A stretch of 64,000 nucleotides of DNA from an uncultured virus (IMG/VR IMGVR_UViG_3300028377_000003). Its lineage: Duplodnaviria; Heunggongvirae; Uroviricota; Caudoviricetes. The position numbers were made by a program, and so were the translations under genes. The notes below the pieces were generated by a model. The model was not told where the DNA came from and did not search any database. It saw only the letters and a list, made by a program, of their open reading frames with translations. Below are positions 7,555 through 41,168 of this stretch, in pieces. Each line of letters starts with the position of its first letter. The stretch's first letter is position 1. The stretch is from the IMG/VR virus record IMGVR_UViG_3300028377_000003, positions 62,001 through 126,000 of that record; one strand, given 5' to 3'.

Positions 7555-8304
7555 ATGAAAATGATTAACGGCAAACTTTACTTCAAGACGCCAGACATTC
7601 GGGCTTTCCTCGGGATTACCGATGGTCAAATATGGGCCGCCCGTGAGCGGAATGCCCTCAATCCGATCCAGTTTTCGGACGGTGGCGACTGTTACTTCAA
7701 ACCCGAAGAGATTTTGGAAGGCAAGCGCCAGCTTGTTGAAACGGGACGTCTCGGGTCCAGCAAGCTCCGACGAAAGCCGGTCATCGAGGACAAGCAAGAG
7801 TACGCCCGTATCGTGCGGTATCTGGAACGAAGCGGCTATGCCGTGGGCGACGTCAGCCAGCTTGAGGCACGTGAAGATGGAAAGGGTTACAAGGTCGTCT
7901 ACGACCCGACCGCCGTTCCGGTTGATGATTCCGCCACGGCCACAAGCACCGAAAATGTGTCCACCGATACGTCCGAAAGTAGCGGCGGCGATATGGCATG
8001 GAAAAATCGGCCCACCCCGGACGTCTTGCCCTTCAATTTCGCGATGGGGTCTGACGAAGTGCCCGAAGGGCCAGAGGCCAAGCACGATTTCAAGAACGTC
8101 CAGAGTTGTTTCGGGTACGCCGACGAGACGAACACTGAGTGCAGTGAAAACTGCGCCTTTTTCGAAGCGTGCGCCAAGTCCCGGTTCCGCATCATGTCCA
8201 CCGTAGCCAATGGATTGGACAAGGGCAAAGATGCGGGCACCATCCGCGAAGAAGAAGCGGCGGTGCGCAAATCCGAAATCGAACGGGTTGCCGCACTTAT
8301 CTGA
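7555..8304 (+). CDS. Hypothetical protein (possible N-terminal HTH, C-terminal Cys cluster)
   Basis: AAGGAG RBS; CFG...ECSENCAFFEAC. Confidence 0.75.
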   Translation: MKMINGKLYFKTPDIRAFLGITDGQIWAARERNALNPIQFSDGGDCYFKPEEILEGKRQLVETGRLGSSKLRRKPVIEDKQEYARIVRYLERSGYAVGDVSQLEAREDGKGYKVVYDPTAVPVDDSATATSTENVSTDTSESSGGDMAWKNRPTPDVLPFNFAMGSDEVPEGPEAKHDFKNVQSCFGYADETNTECSENCAFFEACAKSRFRIMSTVANGLDKGKDAGTIREEEAAVRKSEIERVAALI

Positions 8305-8413: not shown

Positions 8414-8857
8414 ATGGCACAAGCCGCCCAAAAGCAAGACAACGCCCAGCCCACCTTCAACGAAATGCTCGAAGAGGGCATCGAACTCTACCGCGACCTG
8501 CGGGAAAAGAAAAGCCGCCTGAGCGAAATCAAAGACATGCTCCGCCAGCACGCTGAGGCCAAGCGCAACGGCGTCAAGACGGTGGAACTCACCACCGAGG
8601 ACGGCGAGCACACCGTGTCCGTCACGTTCCCGGACCCCAGCCTCAAGGTGAAGTCCGACAACGACGAGATGGCTTCCATCCGCGAAGATCTCGGCGAACT
8701 CCTGTTCGCGATGTTCTTCAAAGAGAAAACCTCGTACAGCGTCGAATCCGACTTCGAGGACAACATCGTCAAGGTCAAGGATCCCCTCCAGCGTCAAGAA
8801 CTGGAAAGCGCGGTCGAGAAGAAAGCAGCCACCCCGCGTGTCAGCTTCCCGAAGTAA
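8414..8857 (+). CDS. Hypothetical protein
   Basis: 147-aa ORF with GAGG RBS and strong C/G third-position bias. Confidence 0.8.
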   Translation: MAQAAQKQDNAQPTFNEMLEEGIELYRDLREKKSRLSEIKDMLRQHAEAKRNGVKTVELTTEDGEHTVSVTFPDPSLKVKSDNDEMASIREDLGELLFAMFFKEKTSYSVESDFEDNIVKVKDPLQRQELESAVEKKAATPRVSFPK

Positions 8858-8923: not shown

Positions 8924-8961
8924 GCAAAGCCCCCGGTGGTTAATTCCATTGGGGGCTTTGC
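8924..8961. terminator. Strong hairpin (terminator-like) with TTAATT loop
   Basis: gcaaagcccccggtgg-ttaatt-ccattgggggctttgc. Confidence 0.55.
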
Positions 8962-9059
8962 ATTACCCCCAACATCCCTCTGACAATTCCCCACAAGATA
9001 GCACAGCCCTTTAGATGTGTTTGCCTACCCCACTAGTCACCTTCGCTGGACAAATAGCT

Positions 9060-9690
9060 TAGGGGCCGTCTCAAAGCGCACACATATCACTTAGCCAAGC
9101 GGAGTCTGGAGGCGTTACGTAGTAATTGACCTTGACGCCTTCGAGTTCTTGCGGAATCATATTGGTGATCTGCGTGTTGGCAGATCGGACGGGTTAACAA
9201 CCGTCGCCGGTGCTTGACTCATAGCAACCTCGCTGTGGGCCGAAGATGGAAAGCCGGTCGGGGTACTCCGCACTCCCCCATCAACAAAGAGTGTCGATGT
9301 AAAGGATCGAGAACCATTGCCCTGTCAAAAGGGTTACTAGCTCGATGACTCCGATAGCCGCCACTTGCTTTCGTGCCTATCAAGGCATGTAGCTGACGGA
9401 TTCCCCAATGACTTCCTGAGTCGGGGGATGAAGGCTGGTAGGAATCGTTTCCCTATGGATCCTTAGTCGGATGTCGGGAACACGCCCATCGGGGCGGTCA
9501 AGCACCGGGTAGTTTACCGGTCAAGAGGTTTGACCACCCGTGATACCTATCTTGGCAAGTAACAATTGGAACCTCATGGATTCCCCAATGACTTCCTGAG
9601 TCGGGGAACGACGGGCTCTACAGTTGGTAGCTATTTGGTAACGGAGGCAAGAGGTCTTGGAATGATAAGCAGTCAGGTAGTTTAGTGAGT
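9060..9690 (+). ncRNA. Candidate large structured non-coding RNA (family unassigned; strand and ends uncertain)
   Basis: No credible ORF; perfect 12-bp long-range helix 9207-9218/9497-9508 plus many local hairpins, several with G-U pairs on the + strand. Confidence 0.55.
9398..9606 (+). repeat. Exact 29-bp direct repeat, two copies 180 bp apart (9398-9426, 9578-9606)
   Basis: ggattccccaatgacttcctgagtcgggg twice; each folds as a bulged hairpin. Confidence 0.95.
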
Positions 9691-9744
9691 AATGTCCTAC
9701 CAACATACGTAATAAGTACTCAGAGTTATAGTACTCTAGGTTGT

Positions 9745-9930
9745 TCTTATTACTCTACTCTCTCTTCTTCCTCTCTTACTTTCCTTGATCAGTCTTCACC
9801 TTTACCTAATAAGAACCTAAGCAATAGCCATATAAGAAACAGTAAAAGAAACAGAAGTAAAAGAAACAGAAGTAAAAGTAAGAGCAGCAGCAGTAGAAAC
9901 AGCAACAGCAATACAACCGGCAACAGGTGT
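9745..9930. repeat. Low-complexity pyrimidine tract followed by purine-rich short tandem repeats
   Basis: tactctactctctcttcttcctctcttactttcc, then aaagaaacagaagta repeats and cag/caa runs. Confidence 0.8.
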
Positions 9931-10385
9931 AGCAGCGTAAGCACCCACGCACGTGTATGTGTCCCCTACGGGGATAGACTACCGATTTTTGGAAGTGTAT
10001 GAGATAGCCACAGTGACCTTGTGAAGTATCCGATAACTGAGTGCCTTGGTGGGCACGGGGGATAGCCACCTGAAGCCTCTTGGAGCGCTTGATAGCCTCT
10101 GAGAATACTTTTGGATCCGGGCTTTTAAGGGGTAAAATACTATTGGGGACAGTAAAACCAGAGTATTTACCCTTGATGAGGATCTAATAGACTTGGCGAG
10201 GGTTGGTGAGTGAATTTCCGAACGGAATAGAAACCGTTTTTGTGGTGCTATTTTTAACGATCGTAGCTACCGGATGGAGATCTCTAACTTTTTTCGACCG
10301 GTCCAAGTGTGATCTGGGTATAATAAGTGAGATTACTTGAGGGGCGGTCCCTCAAATTGGTAGCAAAACGAATACGGAGATTCAC

Positions 10386-10646
10386 ATGATTTACACGTTT
10401 GAAGAAGGCCCTAGCATCGACGAGTTGCTTGAAAACTACATCAAGGCGCTTGTCGCTTCCCCCGATGAAGTAGAGATCGAAAAGACTGAAAGCTCTACGA
10501 CCCTCATTTATACCATTGACGTCGTACATGATGATCGCGGCAAGATTATCGGGCGTGGTGGTTCCATCATCAACAGCCTCAAGACCATTTTTCGTGCGCT
10601 TGGTTGCAAGCATGGTAAGAAGGTCCTCCTAGAAATCAGGGAGTAA
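10386..10646 (+). CDS. khpA: KH-domain RNA-binding protein (KhpA/YlqC-like)
   Basis: 86 aa; LVASPDEVEI...DRGKIIGRGGSIINSLKT with the GxxG loop. Confidence 0.8.
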   Translation: MIYTFEEGPSIDELLENYIKALVASPDEVEIEKTESSTTLIYTIDVVHDDRGKIIGRGGSIINSLKTIFRALGCKHGKKVLLEIRE

Positions 10647-13285: not shown

Positions 13286-14248
13286 ATGTTTACGAATATT
13301 TTCGGCCACGGCCAAATCACAGATTATTTGCAAAGGCTCATCGAGACGGGGGATCTCCCATCTTGCCTCCTTTTTCACGGACCCGAGGGCGTAGGTAAAC
13401 GAACTACGGCACTCGAAGTCGCTAAGAGACTCAACTGTACGGGCACTCGCAAAGCCGGGTGCTCTTGCGCCTCTTGCCACAAGATCGAGAGCGGCAACCA
13501 TCTGGATATCATGGACTATGTGCCGGATGGTAAGACCTTCAAGATCGACCAAGTGCGTGATCTCATTAACGAATCCAATCGCTCCCGCATGGAAGGTAAC
13601 GTGCGGGTGTTCCTCCTGAACGATGCACAGCGGCTTGGGATAAAAGCCGCCGATGCGTTGCTCAAGACGCTCGAAGATGGGCGGGAAAACACCCTTTTCA
13701 TTTTGCTATCGACGTCGAAGACCGCGCTGGTACCTACGCTGGTTAGCCGGTCGCTTGACTTTTATTTCGGGGCCTTGTCCGACGATGCTGTGCGGAGCGT
13801 CCTCGAAAGTAAAGGGCATCGGGGCGCTAGCGTAGATCATGCGGTACGTCTCGGTGGTGGGAGCATAAGCAAGACACTCTATTTTCTGGAGGGCGAGGGA
13901 CTTCAGTTGCGCAACGACGTGTTGTCGCTCCTTTGCGAATACCCACACATCAAAGATTTCCGGGTGATCACGAAAGTCAATGAATATTCGGATCAGATCG
14001 GCGAGTTTTTGGAAACCCTGTATGTCTTGCTTTCCGACCTGTGTTTGGTGGAGCGCGACCTGACAGATTTCGTGCAAAATCAAGACATTTTAGGACAACT
14101 TTCTGGTCTGAAAAATCGTTTTGGTCCAAAATGCTTTAATGCGTTCTCTTTAGTACGCGCTGTGCGTCATCGACAAGAGGACCCGATTGCGCTTGACCAC
14201 CACGTGAAGAGCGTACTGTTGGATCTCAAAGACGAATTTAGAACATGA
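13286..14248 (+). CDS. holB: DNA polymerase III delta' subunit-like clamp loader
   Basis: LLFHGPEGVGK, CSCASC zinc site, HLD, KIDQVR, ADALLKTLE, TLVSR. Confidence 0.85.
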   Translation: MFTNIFGHGQITDYLQRLIETGDLPSCLLFHGPEGVGKRTTALEVAKRLNCTGTRKAGCSCASCHKIESGNHLDIMDYVPDGKTFKIDQVRDLINESNRSRMEGNVRVFLLNDAQRLGIKAADALLKTLEDGRENTLFILLSTSKTALVPTLVSRSLDFYFGALSDDAVRSVLESKGHRGASVDHAVRLGGGSISKTLYFLEGEGLQLRNDVLSLLCEYPHIKDFRVITKVNEYSDQIGEFLETLYVLLSDLCLVERDLTDFVQNQDILGQLSGLKNRFGPKCFNAFSLVRAVRHRQEDPIALDHHVKSVLLDLKDEFRT

Positions 14249-15204
14249 AAACGCCTACGATTGACTGGACAGATGAGCCCTCCGTTGTTGTGGTTGACGG
14301 TTCCGAAGAATATTTCAAGGACCAAATCACTGAATCAGCCAAGCGTACCCTTGACGGGTATAGCTCCGTTCTTGTATGGGCGGGGATTGATTCGGATAAT
14401 GCGATCCGCAACCACCTCTTTGAGGGTTCCCTCATTCCGACCAAAAAGCTGATCATGATCCGGGATGCAAACCGGGTGGATGATTCGGGTTTTTTGGAGC
14501 GGTACTGTAAAGATCCCAACCCTAATCACGTGGTGATTTTGATCGCTTCGGGTGGACGTAAGCCGAAGTGGTTTGGAAAGCTCAAATGCGACGAAAAGGT
14601 CAAGTGTGTTTCGCCCAAGCCTTGGGAATACAAGGATTGGGTGGTGTCGTATTGCCGGAGGCGGGGTTTCAACCTCGATGAGGGTTACGCCGAAAACATC
14701 CATGCGAACGTAGGGGACGACCTTTACGCTTTATCGAATGAGATGGAAAAGGTGTTTTTGAATATGGGCGATCGAACGACCATCACGCCCAAGGATATCA
14801 CTTCGGTTCTGGTCCAACACAAAACGATCAACCCCTTCAACGTTTTGAAGGCGTGGGGTGCAAAGCAAATGTCGACGGCCCTTCGAATGGCCACCATTTA
14901 CTTTCACCAGTCCACAGACATCTATGCGTGTCTCCCGCTGATTTCGATGTTTTTGGGGCAGATCGAAAAGCTCATTCTTTTCGAGTCCTATTTCAAGAGC
15001 GAGTTCAGCAAAAACGATGTATGCAGCCTGATGGGAATTTCCCACTACGTCTACGACCAGTTGCATCGGCAATCGGTTCATTGGAACCTCAAGCAGTTGC
15101 GAAAAGCGTATCGTCAGATGTGCGAAATTGAATCTATGGCCAAGCGCGGGAAAAACGGTCCCCTGTTAATCAACTGGTTTCTTAGTCAAGACTTTGAGGA
15201 GTAA
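14245..15204 (+). CDS. holA: DNA polymerase III delta subunit-like clamp loader
   Basis: GSEEYF, VGDDLYALSNEMEK, ITPKDI; directly follows holB-like gene. Confidence 0.7.
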   Translation: MKTPTIDWTDEPSVVVVDGSEEYFKDQITESAKRTLDGYSSVLVWAGIDSDNAIRNHLFEGSLIPTKKLIMIRDANRVDDSGFLERYCKDPNPNHVVILIASGGRKPKWFGKLKCDEKVKCVSPKPWEYKDWVVSYCRRRGFNLDEGYAENIHANVGDDLYALSNEMEKVFLNMGDRTTITPKDITSVLVQHKTINPFNVLKAWGAKQMSTALRMATIYFHQSTDIYACLPLISMFLGQIEKLILFESYFKSEFSKNDVCSLMGISHYVYDQLHRQSVHWNLKQLRKAYRQMCEIESMAKRGKNGPLLINWFLSQDFEE

Positions 15205-31457: not shown

Positions 31458-31730
31458 ATGAGCGACATGACCGATCTTGAAGCTCGCATCAAGAAGATCA
31501 AATCACAGCGTGAGCAGTTAGTGAGTCAAAAGGCGGAAAAGGTGGCCCGCCTTAAAAATGCGCAAGAAGAATTGCGCAACCTCAAGGAGGAGGCCGCCGA
31601 AAAGGGTTACGATCTTAAAGAGATCCCGGACCTTCTTCCCCAGAAGCGTAAAGAGCTAAACGGCAAGGTTGCCTTGGCTGAGTCCGCTTTGGAAGAGGTG
31701 GAAGAGAAACTCGCCAAGTATGACGATTGA
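31458..31730 (+). CDS. Short coiled-coil protein (possibly middle piece of the split SbcC)
   Basis: AAGGAG RBS; heptad-rich 90 aa. Confidence 0.65.
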   Translation: MSDMTDLEARIKKIKSQREQLVSQKAEKVARLKNAQEELRNLKEEAAEKGYDLKEIPDLLPQKRKELNGKVALAESALEEVEEKLAKYDD

Positions 31731-31749
31731 AATTATTAGGAGTTACGGT

Positions 31750-32934
31750 ATGAGATTTAGTATTCAAAAGGACGCTTTGAAGGCGGCCCTCGATGTAGCA
31801 AGCCTCGCTGTTACCAACGATGCGGGTGTGATCACTTCTTCGATTCTTTTCAAGGTCGAGGAGGATAGTCTCGTCTTGTGGGCTACCGACCGCCGAATCA
31901 TGGTCAAGGTACCTACTACAATCGTGGAAGATTCCCTTCATGGTGAGGGTAGTTTCACCGTAGAGGCCGCACGGCTTTCTCAGTGGGTCGGTAGCGTGTT
32001 TGACGATGTGGTTGACGTGGAAGCCGACGCTAACGGCGTGGTTATGGAATGCGGCGAAGCTAAGGGCCATTTTGCATCGCTCGATGCAGCCTCTTTCCCG
32101 GACTTTTCCAAGCGCCTCGAAGACAAAACCAAGCTCTTCGATATCAACCCCAACGCATTCGTGGATTCCCTGAAATTCGTGCGCCCTTTCATTGGGGAAG
32201 CTACGACGAACAACGAGCTTGCGAACAATTTGCAAGTGACGGAGTTGCGGGGCCGGGATATGCTGGCGACCGATACCTGTTCACTGGCCATGTTCAAGTT
32301 GGCTGAGGCCGATGAAGACGATGCGCTGGCTGAGTATGTGGATAGCGAAGAGCGGTTTAAGATCACAAAGGATGAAATCAAAAAGCTGATTTCGTTCCTC
32401 AGCAAGACGTGTGACCTTTCCTGCACCGTGTCGAAGTCCGACCTTTTCGTGGTCGAATCCGACGACGGATCCCTTTTCGGTTATCCCGATACGCATCTGG
32501 CGCTCCCGAACATTCCCGGTATCCCGGTTGACCTTTCCGAGCCGGAAGTGTGGTCGGTAGATAAGACGAAGCTCCAGAGTGCCGTTAAGGCGCTGGGAGC
32601 TACGGCAGACCCGGACGACGTGGTGCTTGAAATCGGTGTCGCTGGCCCCGAGGGTGCTGAGGGCGTATTGACCTTGAAGATGAAAGACGCCTTAGAAAAG
32701 CATGATTCGGTGGTTAAGATCCCGGTCGTTCGTGTGAAGTCTTCGGGCGAGTCGGTATCACTCAAAGTCAACCGGCACTTCTTGACGAACCCTCTGTCGT
32801 TGTATGACGATGATGAGGTGACGATCGGTGTTAGCGCCCATGACGGTGCTCAGACCAAATACGTCAAGCTCTACGAAAAGACCGAAGACGACAATATTCG
32901 CATTTGCCTCGTGACCTTACGAGTCGATCTATGA
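31750..32934 (+). CDS. dnaN: DNA polymerase III beta sliding clamp-like protein
   Basis: MRFSIQKDALKAAL, LWATD, SFPDF, LATD; ~395 aa. Confidence 0.75.
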   Translation: MRFSIQKDALKAALDVASLAVTNDAGVITSSILFKVEEDSLVLWATDRRIMVKVPTTIVEDSLHGEGSFTVEAARLSQWVGSVFDDVVDVEADANGVVMECGEAKGHFASLDAASFPDFSKRLEDKTKLFDINPNAFVDSLKFVRPFIGEATTNNELANNLQVTELRGRDMLATDTCSLAMFKLAEADEDDALAEYVDSEERFKITKDEIKKLISFLSKTCDLSCTVSKSDLFVVESDDGSLFGYPDTHLALPNIPGIPVDLSEPEVWSVDKTKLQSAVKALGATADPDDVVLEIGVAGPEGAEGVLTLKMKDALEKHDSVVKIPVVRVKSSGESVSLKVNRHFLTNPLSLYDDDEVTIGVSAHDGAQTKYVKLYEKTEDDNIRICLVTLRVDL

Positions 32935-37501: not shown

Positions 37502-38923
37502 ATGTCTTTCGATACGAAATACCGACCAGACCTTTTCGAAGATGTAATCGGCCAGCAGAGCACGATTCATGTGCTCCAAGAGCTACTTCGAAGGGGTGAC
37601 ATTTTTCAAAAATCGTATGTCTTTTCTGGGCCTTCGGGCACAGGTAAGACGACGACCGCCCGTATTCTAGCACGGGCAATGCTGTGTGATAATTTCGATC
37701 CTGATGTGGCGGAACCTTGTAACGAATGCAACTCCTGCAGGGAAATCCTTGATCGTGGGGATAGTCCCTCATTCAAGGAGATGGACGCGGCCAATCATAC
37801 GGGTGCGGACAACATTCGCAAGATCGTCGAAGGGTTGAACTATTACACATTGGACGGTGGCGACCGTAAGATTTATCTTATTGATGAATGCCACCGGCTA
37901 TCATCGCAGGCGATGGACGCCCTCCTGAAGCCTATGGAGGATAATGTCCCCGGCACCAAAGACAAGCGCCTCGTGTGTTTGTTCTGTACTACCGAGCCGC
38001 AAAAGCTACGGGGTACGATCAAAGGCCGTTGTATGGTCTTTGGTATTAAAGAGCCATCGAGGGATGAAGTTGTCCGTCGCCTGCGTTACATAGCTGAACA
38101 GGAAGAGATCGCTGTCGAAGACGACGACGCGCTTGATCTCATCTTCGGTTATGGCAAAGGGCATATCCGAGACATGGTGAACGCCCTTGAACGAGTAAGC
38201 CGGGTTGGTCCCGTTACAGAGGATACCGTTCGGCAGCAATTAGGATTGGATGTAATTTCGAAGGAGTATGAAATGCTCTTACATCTTCGGGATGATCCAG
38301 ACAAAAGCATGGCCGCTCTAATGGAAGCCTTGACCCAGACAGATCCTGACTCGATCTACGAGGGTATTGCCGACGCGGCTATGGCATCATATAGGTTGGC
38401 AAAAGGCATAACTATTGGTCTGAGTTACGTGGAGAAATCGCTTGCAGAACAGATTTCTTCATGCTATGAAGAAGAAACACTACTTACTCTAGCGCATCGC
38501 ATCTTGAATGCGAACCGGAAGATGGATCGGAATGCGTTGGTCTGCGAGCTTTTAATGCTACAGAACCAGCTTGAAAACGGTACCGTACAGATGGCTTCCC
38601 AGCCACAAACGATCACCGTCCCGGTCCCCTCGGAACCTTCGCAAGAAGTTACCGAAGATAAAGCACCCACAGGGTCCAAGCCCAAGTCGAAACGCGACGT
38701 AGAACGTGAAAACAGGGAAATGGCTGAGAAAGCTATGCCCTACGGTGGTAAAGCCGCACGTGGAACACCGTCAGCGACGGCAGATGCTGTTGAAGATCCT
38801 ATGGACGCTTACCGGAAGAAACGTAGCTCAGTCAAAGCTGCGCCGCGCCCTATTACCCCCAAAGCACCCACCGGAACAGATTACTCGGAGCAAAAGAAGC
38901 TATTCGAATCGCCTGATGAGTGA
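37502..38923 (+). CDS. dnaX: DNA polymerase III gamma/tau subunit
   Basis: KYRP..FEDVIGQ, GPSGTGKTT, PCNECNSC, EMDAA, IDECH, ALLK, CTTE. Confidence 0.92.
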   Translation: MSFDTKYRPDLFEDVIGQQSTIHVLQELLRRGDIFQKSYVFSGPSGTGKTTTARILARAMLCDNFDPDVAEPCNECNSCREILDRGDSPSFKEMDAANHTGADNIRKIVEGLNYYTLDGGDRKIYLIDECHRLSSQAMDALLKPMEDNVPGTKDKRLVCLFCTTEPQKLRGTIKGRCMVFGIKEPSRDEVVRRLRYIAEQEEIAVEDDDALDLIFGYGKGHIRDMVNALERVSRVGPVTEDTVRQQLGLDVISKEYEMLLHLRDDPDKSMAALMEALTQTDPDSIYEGIADAAMASYRLAKGITIGLSYVEKSLAEQISSCYEEETLLTLAHRILNANRKMDRNALVCELLMLQNQLENGTVQMASQPQTITVPVPSEPSQEVTEDKAPTGSKPKSKRDVERENREMAEKAMPYGGKAARGTPSATADAVEDPMDAYRKKRSSVKAAPRPITPKAPTGTDYSEQKKLFESPDE

Positions 38924-39467
38924 TCAAAAAAGAAAGTGGGTCATCTTGGAGCTTAGTCACCAAGGGGAAAAGAAAACCCCGCCTGAGCTTCAAAGCCTTT
39001 TACAACCCGAGATCGGGGAGGGGGTCGAGATTTTCGTCCCTTCTATCACCTTTTCAAGACGGGAAAGTAATGTTACCATCTGTTTGATGGAGGGTTATTT
39101 TTTCGTCGAAGCGGTGATACCCCCATCGACGTTCTTCACGCTTGAAGAGCTTCCTTATGTGCGTCGTGTCTTAACCCACGATGAACCGAATGGACGGTTC
39201 ATTTGCTATGTGGAACAGGACACCGTAGACGAACTAAAGGAAAAGCTCCACCGTCAAGCGGCCCGTGATATTTGTGTAGGAGACTATGTGAAGGTTTGCG
39301 AAGGGGCGTACTCGTCACTTAGGGGTAAGATCCTTAACGTGTTCGCCGACAAGGAACGGGCTTCAGTCCATATCGTGGATCTGAAGAGCATGGAAGTGAT
39401 TGTGGAATTACCTTTCCAATTTTTCGAACGAATACCAGCTAACTCCGATGAGGACTACGAACTATGA
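38916..39467 (+). CDS. NusG-like transcription factor (NGN + KOW)
   Basis: W near N-terminus, IFVP, GYFFV, KOW VGDYVKVCEGAYSSLRGKI. Confidence 0.75.
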   Translation: MSDQKRKWVILELSHQGEKKTPPELQSLLQPEIGEGVEIFVPSITFSRRESNVTICLMEGYFFVEAVIPPSTFFTLEELPYVRRVLTHDEPNGRFICYVEQDTVDELKEKLHRQAARDICVGDYVKVCEGAYSSLRGKILNVFADKERASVHIVDLKSMEVIVELPFQFFERIPANSDEDYEL

Positions 39468-40426
39468 AAACCAACGTGATCGTGGACGGGATGAACATCG
39501 CCTTTCGCTGCTCTTACATTTACGACAAGAAGCAGGGGCTACAGAACTCCGAAGGGTTGCCTACTGGAACTATCTATGGCTTTGCCCGTCACATGGTCAA
39601 GTTGCGTGATCGTTTCCCCGGTGCTGATATCTGGGTAGCGTGGGAAGGCGCTGGAAGCCGCGAGGAACGTCGAGCTATCTATGCCGACTACAAAGGCAAC
39701 CGGAAAGATGAAACGTCGGAGGGGCCGTCTGAGACACGTCAGTTGGTATTTGACCAAGTGTCTGTGCTGCAGGATTTGCTTGAAGCCACGGGTATCCACC
39801 AAGTGAGCGCTGCAGGCTACGAAGCCGACGATATGATTGCGACACTTGTGCGTGACCGTTTCAGTGACGACGAATACAAGAACGTCATTATAAGCAGCGA
39901 CCGTGACCTACTTCAGTTGGTGGGCGACGGGACTGTGCAAATGACGCCGCACCCGGAAAAGTTTTTTGACGCCCTTAAAGTCGAAGAGGAATACGGTGTG
40001 CCGCCCCGTCTCCTTTTGTCTTACCGGGTGTTCGATGGGGACAAGAGCGATAACATGCCGGGCATGTATCGTTTCCCCCGCAAAAAGATTGCCACCATCG
40101 TCCAAGAACACGACGGCGATCTGGAATCTATTTATAATGACTGTGAAGTGAAGCTAACCGAGTTCCAAGAAAACACCCTCACCGATTTTGAGGACCAAGC
40201 CTACGTCAACCGGGACATCATGTACCTCCGGTCGATCGAGGATTACGACGAACGCGAAGGACGTCATGACGAAGAAGTCATTGAGCGTTTTTGTGATCAG
40301 CTAGATATCGAATCCATCCGCGCCGACTTGCTTTCTTTTACGGCCAAGACAGGGTTCGTCAAGACAGGAGATACAAATGTCAGTACATTACATCCAACCG
40401 CTGGATCCGCAGGAACTGGCGAGTAG
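39464..40426 (+). CDS. 5'-3' exonuclease / flap endonuclease (PolA N-terminal-like)
   Basis: IVDG, YKGNR, YEADD, SSDRD, GDKSDNMPG. Confidence 0.9.
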   Translation: MKTNVIVDGMNIAFRCSYIYDKKQGLQNSEGLPTGTIYGFARHMVKLRDRFPGADIWVAWEGAGSREERRAIYADYKGNRKDETSEGPSETRQLVFDQVSVLQDLLEATGIHQVSAAGYEADDMIATLVRDRFSDDEYKNVIISSDRDLLQLVGDGTVQMTPHPEKFFDALKVEEEYGVPPRLLLSYRVFDGDKSDNMPGMYRFPRKKIATIVQEHDGDLESIYNDCEVKLTEFQENTLTDFEDQAYVNRDIMYLRSIEDYDEREGRHDEEVIERFCDQLDIESIRADLLSFTAKTGFVKTGDTNVSTLHPTAGSAGTGE

Positions 40427-41168
40427 ATTTTCGACCGATGATACGCTTGAGCCCCTTCCCCGGCAAGACGAACAATGGAAGGAGCTGCACCTAGATAAGA
40501 TCAAGGCCGTTTTAGATAGGTTGCCAGACCGTGAGGAGGACTTGATCCGTCTTTACTTTTTCTTGAACAAGCGCCAAACGGACATTGCGGAGATTTTCAA
40601 CATCACTCAAGCCGCCGTGTCCTACCGGCTAAAGCGTGCCCTTGATAGGATTCGATTTTTGATCGAAATCCCCGAGGTGACAAAAGACGAAATTTACGAC
40701 GACCTCCTTCCCGTCATGCCTACCAAGCTAGACGCTCGCATCTTTGCCGAGATGTTTGAGTCCACTTGCCAAAGTGAAGTTGCTGACATTCTCGATATCA
40801 GTCAAGGGCGTGTGCGCCACCGATTCATTGCGAACCTTGCCCGGATGGGTCAAGTGCTTGTGGACCGCGTGTATGCGTGGGTGCGCCGTAATGATGAGGA
40901 CCTCCAAGAGGTGGCTGTCGTCAAAGGCAAACTCGACACCTTAATGGAAGCGCAACGTCAGAAAGAGTTGGAAATCGAAGAATTCGAAGACGGCTTAAAG
41001 GAGATTGTTGACCTCCTCGTTGACCTCCCCGACGATCTTGAAGATGAGGACCTAACCCTCTTCGCTCGTTACTATAAAACGTTCGTCAAGATCCGCTACA
41101 ATTTCAACATCCTCCGCGAAATCAAGCTACCGAAATGGTCCAACCGTAGCAAGAAGACGATCACCTAA
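40377..41168 (+). CDS. Sigma70 region-4-like HTH protein (two tandem HTHs)
   Basis: LDRLPDREEDLIRLYF...QTDIAEIFNITQAAVSYRLKRA and QSEVADILDISQGRVRHR. Confidence 0.7.
   Translation: MSVHYIQPLDPQELASRFSTDDTLEPLPRQDEQWKELHLDKIKAVLDRLPDREEDLIRLYFFLNKRQTDIAEIFNITQAAVSYRLKRALDRIRFLIEIPEVTKDEIYDDLLPVMPTKLDARIFAEMFESTCQSEVADILDISQGRVRHRFIANLARMGQVLVDRVYAWVRRNDEDLQEVAVVKGKLDTLMEAQRQKELEIEEFEDGLKEIVDLLVDLPDDLEDEDLTLFARYYKTFVKIRYNFNILREIKLPKWSNRSKKTIT

Follow-up and report, generated by a model that had tools for sequence, protein, structure and literature searches.

A conserved structured element of about 470 nt lies immediately before a probable replication origin in an uncultured clade of giant phages, and it appears to represent a family of structured RNAs that has not been described previously, with a function that we deduce from sequence. 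Large folded phage RNAs are presented as having no known job in the account of GOLLD and ROOL (10.1101/2024.12.08.627333); in this case, a large folded phage RNA is linked, in five diverged lineages, to an origin located by computation as well as to a gene for an RNA-binding protein. It may assist in opening or priming the adjacent origin, a function that is directly testable and that would be a candidate answer to how a single origin is fired in giant phages lacking DnaA. Even if independent of the origin, the element would constitute a new RNA family, whose compact pseudoknot and recurrent internal-loop motif are well suited to structural work.

The intergenic island and its relatives

The window, i.e., the whole stretch of 64,000 nt that was analysed, corresponds to C1:62001-126000 of a virus record of 129,690 nt (G000), which is rated 57% complete and carries structural genes for terminase, portal and major head proteins. 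One protein of the window recurs on a contig of 230,823 nt, and neither a host nor a cultured relative was identified by blastn and tblastn. The initial annotation of this DNA had proposed a large multi-domain RNA within an island free of open reading frames (ORFs). Indeed, the island is the longest gap without ATG-started ORFs of at least 80 aa in the 130-kb record (1,426 nt); the genes flanking it are whole, in agreement with the earlier view that no host gene is interrupted, and ARAGORN and Rfam recognised no tRNA or tmRNA in the window, as had also been noticed.

Relatives were collected through two neighbouring proteins. The search with the upstream protein yielded six loci, two of them near-identical to the window and the rest forming two near-identical pairs (L008/L009 and L010/L011), and the search with KhpA, encoded downstream, yielded five, namely L029, located in a complete record of 437 kb (G001), L031, located in a fragment of 80 kb (G002), the near-identical phage and two unrelated contigs. 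The lineages compared are the window, L008, L011, L029 and L031, with KhpA proteins 48-76% identical to that of the window. In all five, the order of RNA element, AT-rich strand-asymmetric repeats and KhpA is unbroken, the element being placed just upstream of KhpA and in the same orientation relative to it, and the upstream side varies. The element is absent from L003, L030, L032 and L061.

On the upstream side, a gene of 147 aa (8414..8857, + strand) is the neighbour of the island in four of the five lineages, being absent in L029, and a gene of 249 aa (7555-8304) is likewise found upstream in four. The former displays an extreme bias towards codons ending in C (66% C at fourfold sites; 59% in L011), which suggests very high expression. 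The 249-aa protein has a helix-turn-helix-like start and a C-terminal four-cysteine motif, features that make it a candidate origin-binding protein; it matched no solved structure or family, and a role as initiator was set aside, since its helix-turn-helix look-alikes are weak (0.77-0.82). In L031 only, a minus-strand DUF7007 gene (1761-2705) stands between the upstream gene and the island. Moreover, a strong hairpin without a U-run follows the upstream gene (8924..8961, + strand) and is a probable terminator, and L008 and L011 also have a hairpin in this position; the hairpin of the window was not among the sites listed by the terminator scan.

Architecture of the element

The element extends over 9186..9655 on the + strand, with ends placed from conservation, and all the helices described below are read on that strand. 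It begins with P1, a 5-bp hairpin (9188..9205) that is identical in three lineages, has two pairs changed on both sides in L029 and is not recognisable in L031. P2 (9206-9211 / 9253-9258) closes a variable arm, and in this helix a G-C pair becomes G-U in L008 and a C-G pair becomes A-U in L029. Next to it lies an H-type pseudoknot (9260..9294), with a pyrimidine loop 1 and an A-rich loop 3. Stem 1 of the pseudoknot (9260-9263 with the C-run 9275-9279) pairs in all five lineages, a count that depends on anchors chosen by us; MAFFT shifts this stem by one column in L011, where direct reading pairs it fully. Stem 2 (9270-9275 / 9289-9294) was assigned in three of the five lineages and shows changes on both sides in four of its six pairs. 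P5 (9306-9311 / 9341-9346), which together with the invariant ACUCC that follows it occupies 9306..9352, is paired in every lineage and shows compensatory changes across them; further compensatory changes in P1 and P5 are seen in the distant L029/L031 copies.

The modules of the 3' part are enclosed by the long-range helix P6 (approximately 9353-9367 / 9621-9635), in which L008 pairs 13 of 14 positions and the window 12 of 14; the two sequences share a C-U mismatch and differ by two double-sided changes. The best helix from the region where P6 starts beat all but two of 40 control starts in both the window and L008, the top helix of the window in this test being an overlapping alternative (9360-9655), and the P6 candidates found in L011, L029 and L031 did not exceed the controls (9, 23 and 16 of 40).

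Each module comprises an asymmetric internal loop (YAYGGA / NGAC type), a 6-bp stem, an AAU bulge and a capped hairpin. Module 1 occupies 9395..9432; module 2 (9454..9475) is shortened in the window and full length in L008 and L011; a small GC hairpin (9483..9496) is kept in these three lineages; and module 3 occupies 9575..9612. A motif search recovered 11 copies over the five lineages (3, 3, 3, 1 and 1), and a twelfth was found by a model. The two bulged hairpins that the initial annotation called identical are thus copies of this repeated module: the duplication is real, but it consists of a 42-nt repeat, 88% identical and 180 nt apart. Similarly, the six hairpins named there all fold at their positions (-5.3 to -12.7 kcal/mol), although those at 9108-9142 and 9167-9186 precede the first conserved block, and the pseudoknot, a further module and the likely origin of replication immediately downstream had gone unnoticed.

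The repeated internal loops are probable protein-binding sites, for which KhpA is the nearest candidate. Two other readings of the module were discarded. For a kink-turn, inspection by eye revealed no register that keeps G-A pairs beside the 3-nt bulge in all copies. A CsrA decoy is without support, since the ANGGA present in 8 of 11 modules is located in the internal loop and not in a hairpin loop.

Covariation, folding energy and strand

Covariation among homologues had been named at the outset as a way to check the element, and compensatory changes were found in the modules and in the 5' core. When the six full-length copies of equal length were aligned, the other copies being left out, 10 of 17 module pairs were changed on both sides and 0 of 500 shuffles scored as high; these copies are paralogues, so this shuffle control is generous. 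For the 5' core of the three closer lineages, made up of P1, P2, the pseudoknot and P5, 97.5% of 81 cells are paired and 6 of 27 pairs are changed on both sides, a result reached by none of 500 shuffles, and slid controls gave at most one such pair. With three to five lineages and paralogous modules, the shuffle controls overstate significance. Furthermore, a model from three lineages, run over 541 kb that included all of G001 and the 80 kb of G002, ranked the syntenic islands of these two records first and second (21.3 bits for G002 and 15.6 bits for G001, the next best being 13.2); these distant scores are weak and their E-values rough, and neither match survived a filtered search of whole records. 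With the module model, the three best matches in L029, L031 and L061 fall in islands, on the + strand.

Folding energy, a second check named at the outset, gave a divided result, since 9040-9700 reaches z -3.4 against shuffles, but 200-nt windows starting at 9101-9501 (z -0.1 to -2.3) remain within the background of the window (-1.1 ± 1.3). Folding energy alone would not single out the region; covariation does. These background-level local energies, a 12-bp helix restricted to one lineage (see below) and the small number of lineages would all be compatible with functionless chance hairpins and recent duplications in intergenic DNA. However, compensatory changes affect P1, both pseudoknot stems, P5, P6 and the modules, and the best model matches of the two distant records are the syntenic island, on the same strand, which makes an origin by chance very improbable. 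We are therefore highly confident that the conserved structure is real, and the initial proposal of a multi-domain structured element outside known families holds, with compensatory changes in five lineages and KhpA always as the next gene. Regarding coding potential, no reading frame is conserved, the indels between the window and L008 including 5, 2, 32 and 1 nt, and the longest stop-free stretches measure 41-147 codons.

Energies calculated for the + and the - strand of the five lineages (z -2.3/-2.8, -4.4/-3.6, -3.1/-3.7, -3.1/-3.0 and -1.1/-2.8) leave the strand of the element undecided. The + strand is favoured because homologous pairs of the modules and the 5' core pass through G-U, because 16 G-U against 2 A-C cells occur among 251, a tally biased by the choice of helices on the + strand with G-U allowed, and because of the promoter candidates described below. 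The G-U intermediates and this biased tally also argue against a fold acting as single-stranded DNA at the origin, as a priming or helicase-loading signal, which the vicinity of the probable origin and the weakness of the promoter evidence would otherwise suit. Pseudoknots with an A-rich loop are characteristic of RNA, which likewise counts against it. We regard such a DNA fold as improbable, and consider it likely that the structured element acts as RNA.

The 12-bp helix as an alternative fold

The initial annotation had organised the element around a perfect 12-bp inverted repeat (9207-9218 / 9497-9508, + strand). The repeat is present, with 13 pairs when one G-U is counted; of 2000 shuffles, 18 also yielded a perfect 12-bp inverted repeat, as did 7 of 205 genome tiles, and it is unusual but weak on its own. 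In the predicted ensemble of the window this helix dominates (pair probability 0.97), and the comparative fold, scored without the pseudoknot, lies 9.9 kcal/mol above the minimum. As the organising stem, however, it was rejected: L008 and L011 contain nothing equivalent to its 3' arm, 9206-9211 has its conserved partner at 9253-9258, and the enclosing helix that is conserved is P6.

The 12-bp helix excludes P2 and crosses P6, and L008 carries at the site of one arm a hairpin that the window does not have. Folds predicted for prefixes of the element contain P2 when they end at 9270 and 9360, pair the P2 strand elsewhere when they end at 9480 and 9496, and contain the 12-bp helix when they end at 9520. 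According to these predictions, the helix would be either a lineage-specific accident or a late-forming alternative.

A probable replication origin downstream of the element

The probable origin core is an AT-rich stretch (9680..9960) in which a pyrimidine tract gives way, at about 9808, to short repeats rich in purines. The lowest stability of any 200 bp in the 130-kb record is centred on 9780, within about 9700-9950; by the same measure, the homologous island ranks first in G001 and second in G002. The pyrimidine-to-purine switch in the island is the strongest of G000, the second strongest of G002 and outside the top six in G001, and the last module ends 163-350 nt before this switch in all five lineages.

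In the complete record G001, the cumulative GC-skew minimum (283,907) falls inside the homologous island, and it is found at 283,128 when the island is masked. With fourfold sites centred per gene strand, the minimum is at 282,827 and the maximum at 79,141, about half a genome away, and genes of the same strand on either side of the island differ (z 7.8-10.2). In G000, the fourfold-site minimum is at 72,795, which is 410 nt past the island (z 3.8-4.7), and at 65,890 with cruder gene calls, and the all-base skew minimum lies 8.4 kb upstream of the island, where gene direction flips. No skew switch was detected in G002 (z -1.6 to -1.8), a fragment whose left flank measures only about 6 kb. Accordingly, the skew switch, used as a proxy for replication start, is found at the island in two of the three records (G000 and G001). 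A skew typical of two-way replication has been described for about 30% of huge phage genomes (PMC7162821). Overall, we find it probable that the island holds a bidirectional replication origin. Elsewhere in G001, at about C1:65,876, the 200-bp stretch that ranks second in low stability over the 437-kb genome is some 650 nt away from the point exactly opposite the island centre, possibly as a terminus feature or by chance.

Among replication proteins, neither DnaA nor RNase HI was found in any of the three records (G000, G001 and G002), a weak match to a DnaB-type helicase was obtained in G001, and a 5'-3' exonuclease, which we take to be of the family of T4 RNase H, is present in all three.

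Transcription signals, KhpA and the replication block

A sigma-70-like promoter candidate precedes the element (9132..9160, + strand; 9 of 12 matches, 17-nt spacer), and a similar promoter-like site in L029 ends 10 nt before P1. Candidates of this kind occur on the + strand upstream of the element in three of the five lineages, a frequency at chance level, with none in L011 and none before the RNA in L031; a single promoter-like site on the - strand (9183-9156) faces away from the element. The terminator scan of the window returned no + strand terminator-like site between the RNA and the AT-rich element, and in L029 terminator-like sites are located inside the AT-rich element. Further downstream, a promoter-like motif (10290..10324, + strand) precedes KhpA with the same spacing in the window, L008 and L011. 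It is composed of a T-run, TCGACC, a 19-nt spacer and TATAAT, and it was read from the sequences and is not a match of the sigma-70 consensus scan; with a spacing longer than that of sigma-70, it is perhaps read by the phage sigma factor (40377-41168) or an activator.

The first gene after the island in all five lineages encodes a KhpA-family KH-domain protein (10386..10646, + strand; PF13083, E 6.5e-18), as the initial annotation had anticipated for the window, and its GxxG loop is intact. KhpA heads a replication block with clamp-loader subunits, ribonucleotide reductase, ligase, RecD2, RecA, beta clamp, primase and 5'-3' exonuclease. Bacterial-type clamp-loader subunits and beta clamp are among the genes at 13286-15204, 31669-32934 and 37502-38923, and DNA polymerase III alpha had no match in G000, G002 or the complete G001. 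The block also encodes a NusG-like KOW protein (38706-39467; transcription antiterminator match), which could act on the island transcript.

With the element on the same strand as this block, no terminator-like site between them in the window and two mutually exclusive folds available there, the RNA could govern KhpA and the replication block as an extended leader or an attenuator, e.g., through feedback from KhpA or through a switch that exchanges P2 for the 12-bp helix. However, a distance of 520-1130 nt, which includes the AT-rich element, separates the end of the last module from the start of KhpA, a conserved promoter-like motif specific to KhpA is present in three lineages, and the switching helix is absent from the relatives, so that control of this type seems quite unlikely.

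An origin transcript as the preferred explanation

The arrangement observed is a covarying fold, followed by easily melted DNA at which the skew flips, and then by KhpA and the replication genes. The explanation that we prefer, although held tentatively and at less than an even chance, is an origin transcript whose 3' end would invade the unwinding element, by analogy with the T4 and ColE1 origins. Transcription by RNA polymerase would begin on the + strand at about 9167-9186; the 5' body of the transcript, being folded, would be kept off the template, and its 3' end would enter the unwinding element and persist as an R-loop, which would open the duplex for helicase and primase. After trimming, the transcript would provide the primer for the rightward leading strand, similarly to T4 oriF/oriG and ColE1; protein, with KhpA again as nearest candidate, would bind the repeated internal loops, and the 12-bp helix of the window might provide a late refolding switch. 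This proposal builds on the spacing between the last module and the switch, on the absence of a + strand terminator-like site between them in the window and on R-loop precedents. T4 minimal origins are described as a promoter with a downstream unwinding element, at which a persistent R-loop serves as primer (PMC3016281), and ColE1 is reported to initiate from an R-loop (PMC5333043). Also in its favour are the unbroken order of RNA, AT-rich switch and KhpA, the absence of a DnaA match and the presence of a 5'-3' exonuclease in the three records, and the primase, beta clamp and clamp-loader genes downstream; the chance-level promoter candidates, the terminator-like sites within the AT-rich element of L029, the lack of an RNase HI match and the missing skew switch of G002 speak against it. 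That the RNA is needed for initiation is a serious possibility, which we likewise place below even.

The elaborate fold is not required by the T4 model, since T4 origin R-loops, as that account describes them, need no specific sequence (PMC3016281), and the adjacency of RNA and origin may be plain synteny, as flanking genes are also conserved. For these two reasons, a free trans-acting RNA bound by KhpA is nearly as likely as the origin transcript. Such an RNA, comparable to GOLLD, ROOL or raiA RNAs, would merely share the island with the origin, and its modules would be binding sites for KhpA, with or without host KhpB, or for further copies of the RNA, which would serve as scaffold or decoy. 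In favour of this possibility, the pseudoknot and repeated modules exceed the needs of an R-loop primer, the molecule is closed by P6 some 170 nt upstream of the centre of the AT-rich element, and KhpA, with its intact loop, is the next gene in every lineage. KhpA binds structured raiA RNA in vitro with low micromolar affinity (PMC12968392), its RNA binding is reported to need the KH motif (10.64898/2026.10.12.757534), and GOLLD and ROOL phage RNAs form RNA-only cages (10.1101/2024.12.08.627333). On the other hand, the element matches no Rfam family and has no adjoining tRNA island, its position and orientation beside the origin are fixed in all five lineages, and pattern, blastn and model searches found no second copy or unlinked relative.

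The origin-transcript and free-RNA readings are not mutually exclusive. A ribonucleoprotein acting instead of a DnaA-like initiator, in which the pseudoknotted 470-nt RNA, chaperoned by loop-bound KhpA, would open and prime the unwinding element for two-way replication, would go further and appears doubtful.

Comparison with known systems

As the initial annotation had expected, no known family accounts for the element. Under relaxed thresholds, Rfam returned nothing relevant to E 10 in the island and to E 1 in the four relatives, and the GOLLD and ROOL covariance models gave no match at gathering score in the window. Group I and II introns, retrons and RT-linked RNAs were rejected, with no Rfam match, whole flanking genes and no RVT_1 in any of the three records. 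A tmRNA or tRNA identity was also rejected, none being recognised in the window, and IS200/605 omega-RNA relics and preQ1-like riboswitches were leads without support. A phage-encoded tmRNA with a 9-residue tag is located outside the window (C1:40774-41180 of G000). No tRNA was found in the window or in G000; in G001, 33 tRNA genes, all on the minus strand, occupy C1:99840-174399, at least 110 kb from the island at 284 kb, and one of them carries a CUA anticodon, making it a possible amber reader.

The element had no blastn match among cultured phages and plasmids. With tblastn, KhpA had a single match (38%, on a record of 5 kb), and the matches of the reductase were of about 30% only. Pattern scans of viral contigs returned 1, 5 and 11 stretches; in the 14 that were examined besides the near-identical phage, similarity was limited to the pattern, and 13 lie in long open frames. 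In the unrelated contigs L018/L019, a P1-like hairpin followed by a P2 hexamer pair lies in a probably non-coding stretch (2501-2560); with 14.1 bits and a different gene context, these were not accepted as relatives and are probably due to chance. GTDB genomes gave no match with the DNA pattern and none with the 80-aa protein. We found no description of this RNA in the published literature, which does not prove its absence. The candidates in a catalogue of viral RNAs are of 29-151 nt (PMC10690425), and an 18-nt motif of the element is absent from three of its supplements, a catalogue that is only partly searchable and could list a fragment.

Like T4 oriF/oriG, the island presents a promoter candidate, a stretch that is presumably transcribed and then AT-rich, easily melted DNA, in a large phage with its own replication genes and no DnaA. 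T4 minimal origins differ in measuring about 100 bp and, as far as described, in needing no specific RNA sequence (PMC3016281). Here, a covarying and pseudoknotted element of 470 nt precedes the unwinding element, and there is one skew minimum of the bacterial style. ColE1 RNA II is several hundred bases long and must fold, and the origin of lactococcal phage c2 has a non-coding early transcript. The predicted transcript resembles both in being a folded RNA of several hundred bases aimed at an origin; it differs in that no RNase HI gene was found, the origin appears to be bidirectional, and plasmids and cultured phages hold no sequence match, a ColE1-type homology being absent by blastn from 72,556 plasmids at E 0.1. 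GOLLD and ROOL, which are described as having no known function (10.1101/2024.12.08.627333), are likewise large, multi-domain, pseudoknotted and phage-borne, whereas the present element is smaller, contains internally repeated modules and lies at an origin beside KhpA, away from the tRNA islands that GOLLD and ROOL often adjoin. Finally, the raiA motif RNA (ModT) with KhpA-KhpB offers a structured, pseudoknotted RNA with a candidate partner of the KhpA family (PMC12968392), from which the element is distinguished by being phage-borne, by its linkage in cis to the KhpA gene and by matching no raiA family in Rfam.
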